From a virus (Duplodnaviria; Heunggongvirae; Uroviricota; Caudoviricetes), in IMG/VR virus record IMGVR_UViG_2802429249_000003, positions 1 to 22,963 of that record: a stretch of 22,963 nucleotides of DNA; one strand, written 5' to 3'. Below, one piece after another: positions 18,001 to 21,000 of the stretch. The position numbers are program-made. Every line of letters begins with the position of its first letter. The first letter of the stretch is position 1.

Positions 18001-21000
18001 TTGAGTGCTTCTATAATCACAGAAGAGATATCGAGATGACTTCTGCATCGTGTAATCGAGCGTTTTTTATCGGGATCGGCATTGACTCTCTTAAAGCAAA
18101 TCGCCGTGCATGGGCAGCATTTATGTTCTGCGAAAGTCAGGCTCATTCACAGATTGAGAGTAAAATACGTGAACGTGTTTTAAAACAAGCCATCGTCGCC
18201 CTTTTTTCGCTCTCAGCAAACCTTTATTCAGCCAGTTCGTCCACCACGTGCCAATCACGGACATTGTTAATTTACCATTACACAGATCACCCGATGGGGA
18301 TTAGACTAGTAAAGAGCATCACAATAATGCTTTACTAATGTTACCGCATGTTGCGGGTGTCATGTATTAGTGAGGGAATATGTCAGGAATTGAAGTGGAA
18401 ATCGCACCACCTGCAAATTGGCAGGATTTTGAACGGCTCACTCTTGATTATGCGAAAAAGCAATGGAAAGACGAATATGCACAAAGGCATGGGCGTCAAG
18501 GCCAAGCCCAGTCTGGAGTTGATATCTATGGCACCCATAGCATCTCGCATGAATTAATAGGCATTCAGTGTAAGAAAAAAAAACACTTCGAAGTTCCGTC
18601 TAAACAACTAACTATTGCAGAAATTGATGTAGAAATAGACGCAGCAAAAACATTCTCTCCAAGATTAGATCATTTCATCATAGCGACAACCGGACCCAGG
18701 GATGCAGATTTACAGGGACATATTCGTATGCAAAACCAGGCAGGTCTGCCTTTTAAGGTATCTCTATTGTTTTGGGAGGACTACCAGGAGTTTCTTAACG
18801 AGCATGTAGGGTTAATGTATAAATATTATAAGGAGGTTTTAGAGTATCGCAGCAAATACAGTGAACTAGATCATTATCTGCTTCTACTCAGCCAAGCTTT
18901 CGATAGACCTGCGATAAAAACCTCTTTTTATTGTGAAAACCAAGCCAACGACTTTATCAAAGCTATGGCTGACACACAGAATGCCATAGCTACTGGTCGT
19001 TTAGTGGACCGAGCTGGACGTATTATCGATGAATGTAAAGTCCCTAGATCTAAAATCAAAAACCTAACAATAGCAAGTCAGTATCTACAAAAGGCTCGAG
19101 AAATTGCAACAAAGGGTATGGCTGAAGGAGTAATCATTCAGCATCAAAATGTAATAGAAATCAAGTCACATGAAGTGACCGACGAACTTAATCAACTAAG
19201 GCGACAGGCTGTCGAACTTCTTAATAATGAACTTATTAAACGCGACTTGGAAATAGTTCATTTTTGTTAACGTTTAATAGCATAATTGAAAGTCCAAAGT
19301 TGAATTTGACAATATCTTACCATTGATGATTAGATGTTAATTCCAGCCCTCACTATTGAGGGCTGATATACTCAAAATCACTAATATCTCAGGTGATTTG
19401 TGACATGTTCTACGCGGATTAACACAAGGCAATGTTAGTTATGCACCCTCGGCGGATGAAAAATTTCGTACTTCCGCTCCTCGCTCTTAGCAGACTACAT
19501 GATTCTTCAAGCGGTCCGCGTCGTGCCAGATATAGTCATTCACACCCTGAGAATTACATTTTTAAGTGATTCAGGGTATGCGCTTATTGGTTACGAATAT
19601 TATGCTAGAATCATGTGTTATGATGATTGCCGCTTTTCAACAACCCCATCTTCGAGTTGCGAATAATATAGTGATGTCACAGATTAAGGTGAATGTCAGT
19701 TAAAATACATTATGCCCAAAAGGCAGAGACTGGAACTAGGTACACGATGATTAACGCACGGAACATTTTTTAATGCACGCGAATGCGATAAAAATTGTGA
19801 GCTTCTGCTCTTCGATGACTTTACAGGCATACAATTTTGTTAATTAGTAACATAAGCGAAGATTACTAAAATTACTGCATGCTAATCAATAAAGAACAAC
19901 TCAGTACTAACACATGACCGCATTAGCGGACATGTGTTAGAAAAGAATACAACAGATAATTAGATTTTGAATAACTTCAGATCAACATCTAAATGTTAAA
20001 GTAGCATAATAAATATATCACCTGTTTTTTGGTTCTAAACTTAAACGTTCATTTGACCATATTTCATTATTCAATTTTATCTTAATACCATCTGGAAAAC
20101 ACTTAAATTCATACTTGTCAAATTCTGGCTGTTCAATGTTAGAACGGAAATTGTAAAATGTTTTATTTTTGAGTGCTAAAGATAAGCTTTCAGAGAAATC
20201 AATTTCAATGCCGATTGACTTCAAAAAACCGGTGCTCACATCGTCTAAATCATCAAATAAGCTGTAATACCCTTTAAGATAATGATTTAAATCCGTTTCA
20301 ACTTCAAGTGAGTTAATAGAAATATCTTCGGGATCTTGAATGTAAACCCTTAAGTATTCATCAAAGTAACTTTGACATGCAACTCTTAAAACGGGCTCCT
20401 TCCCACTAATTTTACTTATTACTTTTGTTTGATTTTTTGCTGTTATTTGTGCTGCGTCATCATATTTATTTGATCTTCCTTTTGCTTCAAAAACAACAAA
20501 TTCATGCCTTTTATTTAGACCAATTAAATCTGGTCGAGAACGTGTTGTTTTTCTTGTGGCAATATTTTTATTTACATATGCGACATGCTGTAACCAATGA
20601 ACTCCTAATAATTTACATGCTAATAGTTTAGACATCGTCATCCCTAAAGAAAATGAAACAAATACTTTTTCTGTTGGATCCATTTCTTTGTAAACATTAG
20701 TTTTTTGAAGAGAGTTTGATTCTAATTTCAATGATGTCCAAATTAACATTGCACGATTAATGATTTCATAAGCTGAATATATACCGTGCTTAGTTATGTG
20801 CCGAGTATTTCGTTTGCCAACGGTTATTGCAGCCCAAATAATTTCATGCCAGTCAGTAAACAGGGTATGACTGCCACTTAGTTGCTTTCCATATATTTTC
20901 TTCGGGAAATCATCAGCCATATAATGAATTTCAATCGTTTCCTTCAAAACATCCTCTCCTAATTAAGCTTAGCTTTACGATTAGAATAGCATCACTTAGA

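Follow-up and report, generated by a model that had tools for sequence, protein, structure and literature searches.

The locus considered here raises the question of whether a small predicted nuclease works on its own or as the partner of a large NTPase encoded beside it, and of what its C-terminal half contributes. The window is the whole 22,963-nucleotide stretch of the IMG/VR virus record IMGVR_UViG_2802429249_000003 (Caudoviricetes), identical with contig PTSK01000046.1 of assembly GCA_002965205.1, and the gene in question encodes a protein of 296 amino acids (aa). The identical protein is deposited under the title 'MULTISPECIES: hypothetical protein [Enterobacteriaceae]' (coordinates and accession in Table 1). 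We propose, with about even confidence, that it acts alone in defence, as a nuclease under the control of its C-terminal module (the C-module), and that its gene is a horizontally mobile single-gene unit that belongs to no NTPase operon. The open reading frame (ORF), which carries the motifs FERL, GVDIYG, IGIQCKKKK and IIATTG reported for it in a first-pass annotation of this DNA, is not a product of chance, since 308 homolog clusters at E<=1e-3 emerged when 5.8 billion protein clusters were searched, most of these relatives being 290-310 aa long and aligned over their full length, and nearly all titled 'hypothetical protein'.

A predicted nuclease with an intact catalytic core

In the AlphaFold model of the 296-aa protein (pLDDT 90.2), the N-terminal half (the N-module) adopts a restriction-endonuclease fold in which the alpha-beta-beta-beta-alpha-beta core is present, and D48, Q63 and K65 map to consecutive strands (49-52 and 59-64), as a PD-(D/E)xK core would require. 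These three residues are invariant among 43 full-length homologs. Across the sequences of all architectures that carry the nuclease module, D48 and Q63 are retained in 81 of 81 and K65 in 80 of 81, so the loss of catalytic residues that the first-pass annotation had allowed for is not seen in the family. The N-module forms a tight, sharply defined subfamily with sequence motifs of its own (Table 1). The evidence supports its assignment as a catalytically intact DNase with a restriction-endonuclease fold, of the Mrr_cat_2 or FokI-cleavage-domain type, the DNase activity itself being predicted from sequence and model.

The earlier assignment to Mrr_cat holds in part: the nuclease fold and its conserved D...QxK stand, whereas strict Mrr membership does not. 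The protein has no Mrr_N domain and no match to Mrr_cat (PF04471), and hhalign of the family profile against EcoKMrr gives a probability of 0.3%; EcoKMrr itself scores 72.6 bits for Mrr_N and 135 bits for Mrr_cat, and membership of the EcoKMrr family was ruled out. No NCBIfam model matches the 296-aa protein, and a sequence search of the PDB linked it to no solved structure, either by single sequence or by family profile.

An uncatalogued C-terminal module

It is the other half of the protein that constitutes the real novelty of the gene. The first-pass annotation described it as helical and uncharacterised, a description that the present results bear out: four long helices and two small hairpins are predicted in a mostly helical structure, and scans with the family models of Pfam, PADLOC and NCBIfam left the C-terminal half unmatched. 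A permissive Pfam scan of 18 C-domain sequences yielded only scattered single-member noise. Literature searches on Mrr_cat_2, TPR-GreAB-C-PIN and the SMEK domain likewise turned up no account of this module joined to the nuclease. Residues 171-210 (AFDRPA...E...DTQ.AI.TG) are nevertheless conserved as strongly as the catalytic motifs, with R176, E186 and G206 invariant, and relative to the nuclease domain the C-module shows a divergence ratio of just 1.23. The module is close to neutral in charge (median isoelectric point 7.1). An identity as a helical-bundle RNase of the HEPN type was ruled out, the module having neither an Rx4-6H motif nor matches to HEPN folds.

Both halves are exchanged as independent modules

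Around 30 of the 80 species-level loci encode the full architecture, while the remainder match only residues ~1-150 and then continue into other sequence. The full architecture is found in at least 300 sequence clusters from Proteobacteria, Campylobacterota, Bacteroidota, Desulfobacterota, Acidobacteriota and other taxa. Elsewhere, the N-module heads long proteins of 900-1385 aa, in which it is followed by TPR, GreA/B-C and PIN domains (loci L039, L043 and L075), SIR2_2 and TPR (L054), NACHT and FGE-sulfatase (L057) or TPR_12 arrays (L064). Such long architectures are typical of biological-conflict systems, with the N-terminal domain as the effector. At one locus (L021) a full-length family member (9992-10936, plus strand) adjoins a gene for a 1389-aa protein (11803-15969, minus strand) that contains a second copy of the N-module.

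The C-module is equally mobile among proteins. Its profile, scored against 1.84 billion representatives, matched 567 clusters (built at 50% identity), of which 234 reached E<=1e-10. Among the best 150 of these 567, the Mrr-type N-module precedes it in 67, the domain stands alone or as a fragment in 36, and a different N-terminus is present in 47. The other N-termini among these 150 include SMEK_N (five), HNH or HNH_2 (four), PNP_UDP_1, SLFN_AlbA_2, HTH_3 and MshEN, as well as TPR combined with a different restriction-endonuclease-like domain; in some relatives the module is preceded by transmembrane segments. The signature motif is kept even in the HNH, PNP and SMEK_N fusions. A few proteins (P0209, P0250) consist of a nuclease, Mrr-type or HNH, followed by the C-module and a C-terminal HisKA/HATPase_c core. 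Judging from domain order, the HisKA/HATPase_c fusions would place the C-module where a kinase usually has its sensor domain. A small conserved domain that recurs on a wide range of unrelated enzymes, most of them toxic, has the look of a shared regulatory or sensing module.

A mobile cassette in defence or mobile islands

The nearest copies of the gene delimit what is transferred. By blastn, the segment shares 96.1% identity over 1263 bp with Yersinia-type loci (L081/L084) and 92% with a further pair (L087/L088), and outside 18234-19495 there is no DNA match to any of the four. As this is the only DNA common to the close copies, the unit of transfer is therefore a single-gene cassette of 1.26 kb. 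Proteins that are 97% and 95% identical to the 296-aa protein are encoded amid entirely different gene neighbourhoods; on the Yersinia-type contigs, an HNH_2 gene and SIR2_2-HerA lie on one side of the gene and an AraC/MFS pair on the other. L087 is another P4-type island, where the cassette is preceded (2457-7780) by genes for 430-aa and 1280-aa proteins with no Pfam match; these could be additional cargo or defence genes that await characterisation. A megablast search of E. coli complete genomes with 18000-19500 returned no match.

Each of the eight contexts that were read gene by gene is an island, a plasmid or a prophage hotspot, and most have defence or toxin-antitoxin (TA) genes nearby, an association that is a qualitative tally of contexts and neighbour matches. 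Family members adjoin Shedu and a restriction-modification (R-M) S subunit on an Aliarcobacter plasmid, lie near TA modules on an Erwinia plasmid, stand beside a type I R-M system and an AAA_15 gene in Klebsiella, occupy a P2-like hotspot with DUF4145 in Aeromonas, and are found among RES and Mrr_cat genes in P. syringae. When the ORFs up to two genes away from 32 family members (121 in all) are compared with PADLOC, the matches comprise RmrA, mad8, PD-Lambda-4, SduA, a type III methyltransferase, PDC-S13, PDC-S15 and PDC-S20 and a pAgo-associated nuclease. The methyltransferase is the single MTase_III match among these ORFs, and the family has no cognate methyltransferase. Residence in defence or mobile islands is thus what was found, and it was on the former that the first-pass annotation had let its nuclease reading depend.

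The 296-aa gene itself is present on 52 plasmid records and on none of the genuine phage genome records. PHROG 8991, a family of unknown function, matches within the N-domain only, and a phage origin of the gene was rejected on these two grounds.

As regards expression, a 9-bp GC-rich hairpin past the stop codon (Table 1) has a minimum free energy of -16.9 kcal/mol (z=-4.4), and none of 200 shuffled sequences folds equally well; it is a probable terminator. The upstream neighbour is co-oriented with the gene in 27 of 31 full-length loci and the downstream one in 22 of 32 (L001-L031, L081, L087 and the window), counts obtained with crude ORF calling and to be read against a bacterial co-orientation baseline that is already ~70%; the upstream genes are mutually unrelated. 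The cassette may be transcribed by read-through from upstream. An RNA partner in its flanks, such as an RNA antitoxin or a riboswitch, was ruled out, since the flanks have no Rfam match at E<=1 and their repeats are merely short two-copy matches at chance level.

The neighbouring NTPase gene

The 932-aa gene, for whose product the label of STAND NTPase given in the first-pass annotation is putative, lies upstream and in the same orientation, as that annotation stated, at a measured distance of 447 bp. Its product has a weak Cap4-nuclease-like N-terminus in Pfam (25.0 bits, cutoff 26.2), AAA_22 and SEC-C, and its only PADLOC match is a weak one to an LmuA-like N-terminus (E=3e-6). It represents a widespread, constant-length family of its own, with a Cap4-type dsDNA nuclease, AAA_22 and, at the C-terminus, a SEC-C zinc motif. 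The partnership with the 296-aa protein that the first-pass annotation had suggested does not survive comparison across genomes: the copies that are 92-96% identical in DNA share the cassette alone and have other neighbours, and homologs of the NTPase are absent from all 80 species-level loci of the nuclease family. Conversely, four NTPase homologs (93, 86, 74 and 62% identity) have no member of the nuclease family nearby. An all-against-all comparison of four genes on each side of 33 full-length loci found no neighbour family in more than two. Homologs of the NTPase occur in a Rac-like prophage, at a Serratia chromosomal site, and beside Gabija-like OLD/UvrD pairs in Yersinia and Vibrio cholerae; because of the prophage and Gabija-like settings, the 932-aa protein looks like a stand-alone candidate defence NTPase-nuclease.

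Frameshift alleles at an A9 tract

The homopolymer that directly follows the codon of K65 (Table 1) varies among otherwise nearly identical copies. Some sister strains, whose NTPase gene is identical, have A10 instead, which breaks the ORF into pieces of 74 and 180 aa; no other indel occurs in 8.4 kb of a 99.96%-identical island (L091-L093, around 9441). The in-frame A9 allele and the frameshifted A10 allele are each seen whether or not the tandem prophage is present, a pattern that suggests recurrent slippage. The tract is A9 in copies from Escherichia, from the Yersinia-type loci and from L087, A8 in those from Erwinia, and 3-8 in the rest of the family; as the long tract is limited to the enterobacterial clade, it was rejected as a family-wide feature. 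The two alleles represent either a contingency-type ON/OFF switch or the repeated loss of a costly nuclease. The recurrent A10 alleles fit a nuclease that is dispensable and possibly costly.

Organisation of the window

Within the window lies the terminal part of a lambdoid prophage (DnaB/DnaC-like, Rha/Ash and CI-type repressor genes, integrase at 12061-13260). Behind it comes a second, CP4-57-like island, in which a P4-type integrase (13587-14864) is followed by cargo and by YagK/YfjJ and DUF3987 genes. The integrases are in tandem within 12061-14864, and the prophage sits between smpB/ssrA and the CP4-57-like island. Sister strains with and without the prophage exist (L091/L097 versus L093/L099), and where the prophage is missing the island comes immediately after smpB, the ssrA attachment site; the window contains no tmRNA gene. 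In the part of the window with the lowest GC content (~0.32), a 309-aa ORF (20018-20947, minus strand) encodes a PD...(D/E)xK-like motif, RPDLIG...VVFEAKGRS, and has no match in Pfam, PADLOC, NCBIfam, PHROG or PDB. Its occurrence at 90% identity or more in Enterobacter, Cronobacter, Morganella, Serratia, Proteus and Yersinia makes it a probable further example of an independent orphan nuclease cassette.

Table 1. Coordinates in the window of the 296-aa gene, its parts, its cassette and the neighbouring NTPase gene.
Feature	Position	Strand	Remarks
932-aa gene	15134..17932	+	447 bp 5' of the 296-aa gene, co-oriented
Single-gene mobile cassette	18234..19495	no strand	sole DNA common to near-identical copies elsewhere (blastn)
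Shine-Dalgarno-like GAGGG	18372..18376	+	just 5' of the ATG; read from sequence
Coding sequence, 296 aa	18380..19270	+	ATG start; read from sequence; WP_157943648.1
PD-(D/E)xK nuclease module, Mrr_cat_2-like, aa 1-150	18380..18829	+	motifs PPxNWQDF, GRxGQxQxGxD, GxQCK, ATT..D
Catalytic core codons	18521..18574	+	D48 18521-18523, Q63 18566-18568, K65 18572-18574
A9 homopolymer, codons K66-K68	18575..18583	+	directly after catalytic K65; natural +1 frameshift site (A10)
C-terminal module, aa 155-296	18842..19267	+	four-helix bundle and two beta-hairpins; no family model
C-module signature A-F-D-R-P-A...E, aa 173-186	18896..18937	+	R176 and E186 invariant
9-bp GC-rich hairpin	19344..19365	+	within cassette, 74 nt past the stop codon; no U-tract

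Proposed function and rival explanations

We propose that the C-module would act as a built-in sensor or regulator that holds the nuclease inactive. A cue associated with infection would relieve this control, and the nuclease would then be released from autoinhibition or allowed to dimerise or oligomerise. FokI-type and Avs-type cleavage domains need dimerisation or oligomerisation. The activated enzyme would cut DNA, thereby providing a one-gene defence against phages or other mobile elements.

Several points weigh against this proposal. The fold of the C-module is a generic four-helix bundle and as such functionally uninformative, and the role assigned to it is argued purely from the logic of domain architecture; a function in DNA targeting could still apply, because its commonest partners, the Mrr-type and HNH domains, are DNases. 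The match of the protein to Pfam Mrr_cat_2 (PF13156) reaches only 13.5 bits (E=0.067), with a gathering cutoff of 22 bits, and no PADLOC-DB v2.0.0 family is matched at E<=0.1. No promoter was found in the cassette, whose conserved 146-bp upstream flank has no sigma-70 consensus, and some homolog loci have housekeeping neighbours such as SecA and MetH. Since its own Mrr_cat_2 match lies below threshold, the nuclease assignment therefore draws on other evidence, including the catalytic residues and the scores of relatives that share the module (24.2 bits for L054, 22.3 bits for L052 and 20-21.6 bits for others).

The most serious rival, less likely in our view but still live, is that the protein is a type IV-like restriction enzyme dependent on DNA modification. 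The C-module would then be a new kind of reader that recognises modified or hypermodified phage DNA and guides the cleavage domain. A nuclease that stands alone in defence islands, lacking both a methyltransferase and any conserved neighbour, would suit this explanation, as would the fact that DNases are the most frequent partners of the C-module; the END nucleases, with an N-terminal nuclease, a C-terminal helical sensor and no co-associated gene, show that the same logic is workable (PMC12191111). However, the C-module is also borne by partners that are not DNases (PNP_UDP_1, SMEK_N, transmembrane segments, MshEN and a histidine-kinase ATPase), its charge is close to neutral and it resembles no known reader, and neither Mrr_N nor any other known DNA-binding domain is present in the protein. 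It is unlikely that the gene is instead a fused addiction or competition module of the TA kind, which would stabilise the mobile elements that bear it or oppose rival ones, with the C-module as an intramolecular antitoxin and with no specific anti-phage role. Its presence on plasmids and integrative islands, the TA modules beside it in Erwinia and the common frameshifted alleles are in keeping with such a module, and the pairing of a promiscuous C-module with many toxic N-domains may recall the hyperpromiscuous antitoxin domains. Yet a single polypeptide offers no obvious difference in stability between toxin and antitoxin, and the neighbourhoods contain mostly phage-defence rather than maintenance genes.

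Two explanations that would require a second protein appear highly improbable. If the C-module were a homotypic adaptor of the effector-associated-domain type, recruiting the nuclease to a separately encoded sensor with the same domain, a small helical module on many effector domains would be the expected architectural signature (PMC7159879, PMC8195603); but in a scan of 109 loci none of the 65 that bear a C-module encodes a second C-module ORF, each having exactly one, the 932-aa protein is devoid of it, and no long NTPase-type protein is found among the best 150 C-module matches. The same small probability attaches to a two-gene system in which the 296-aa protein would be the partner or downstream effector of the Cap4-nuclease/AAA_22/SEC-C NTPase. 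The genes are indeed adjacent and co-oriented, and occur together in every copy of this ssrA-site island; these copies are clonal, with 99.96% identity, and the co-occurrence therefore carries no information, just as adjacency in one island is no evidence of a two-gene system because the island cargo is a mosaic of independent cassettes. Against it stand the separate occurrence of each gene described above, the nuclease domain that the NTPase has of its own, and the existence of strains whose NTPase is intact while the 296-aa gene is frameshifted.

Beyond our proposal of a self-contained gated nuclease, a wider and more tentative reading, in which we place limited confidence, takes two elements jointly: that the C-module is a new, widespread and effector-promiscuous sensor or regulator defining a class of one-gene immune proteins, and that the A9 tract provides ON/OFF switching in enterobacterial populations. 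Such a class may include at least eight kinds of toxic effector (such as Mrr-type, HNH, PNP_UDP nucleosidase, Schlafen, SMEK_N, membrane segments and histidine-kinase outputs) and may be recognised by the signature AFDRPAF...E...DT..A.NTG, the 296-aa gene being its Mrr-type representative. If the proposal is correct, the gene represents an uncatalogued single-gene defence family, and the C-module a reusable sensing or regulatory part that present domain and defence databases miss entirely. The cue that it senses, once identified, would explain the control of otherwise unrelated effector fusions, and a compact trigger-gated nuclease of 296 aa would be added to the toolbox.

Comparison with known systems

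The closest kind to the N-module is that of the Mrr_cat_2 and Mrr-like PD-(D/E)xK cleavage domains (AF1548, 1y88; FokI; N.BspD6I; the nuclease domain of LlaBIII), from which the 296-aa protein differs by its sub-threshold Mrr_cat_2 score (13.5 vs 22 bits) and its own motifs, PPxNWQDF and GRxGQxQ. It resembles EcoKMrr in being a stand-alone gene of ~300 aa with a D...QxK nuclease and no methyltransferase, but the order is reversed: EcoKMrr has an Mrr_N reader followed by Mrr_cat, whereas here the nuclease comes first and the four-helix bundle follows. On the type IV reading, MspJI and AspBHI would provide a parallel in layout, again with the domain order reversed. Shedu (SduA), whose genes adjoin family members in at least two loci, is likewise a defence nuclease of the PD-(D/E)xK type that is encoded by a single gene and whose accessory domain varies, but its DUF4263 nuclease lies at the C-terminus, and the 296-aa protein has no SduA match in PADLOC or Pfam. 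Comparable N-terminal nuclease effectors are found in the Avs or bacterial NLR-type STAND proteins (e.g. Avs4, 8dgf), while the 296-aa polypeptide has no NTPase domain in Pfam, no repeat sensor and no linked NTPase gene.

The proposed mode of control finds its parallels elsewhere. In CapRel(SJ46), an N-terminal toxic enzyme is restrained by a small C-terminal phage-sensing domain within one polypeptide (PMC9712102), an arrangement that may be the closest functional analogue of the 296-aa protein, although the folds are unrelated and the toxin pyrophosphorylates tRNA rather than being a predicted DNase. The END nucleases join a PLD nuclease to an inactive EndoIII domain (iEndoIII) that reads modified DNA (PMC12191111). 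Both of their folds differ from those described here, and iEndoIII pairs only with DNA-acting partners, whereas the C-module is also joined to PNP_UDP, SMEK_N, transmembrane and kinase partners. They nevertheless share with the 296-aa protein an N-terminal nuclease and a C-terminal all-helical domain, the sensor in END nucleases, together with residence in defence islands, the lack of a co-associated gene and the modular exchange of both halves.

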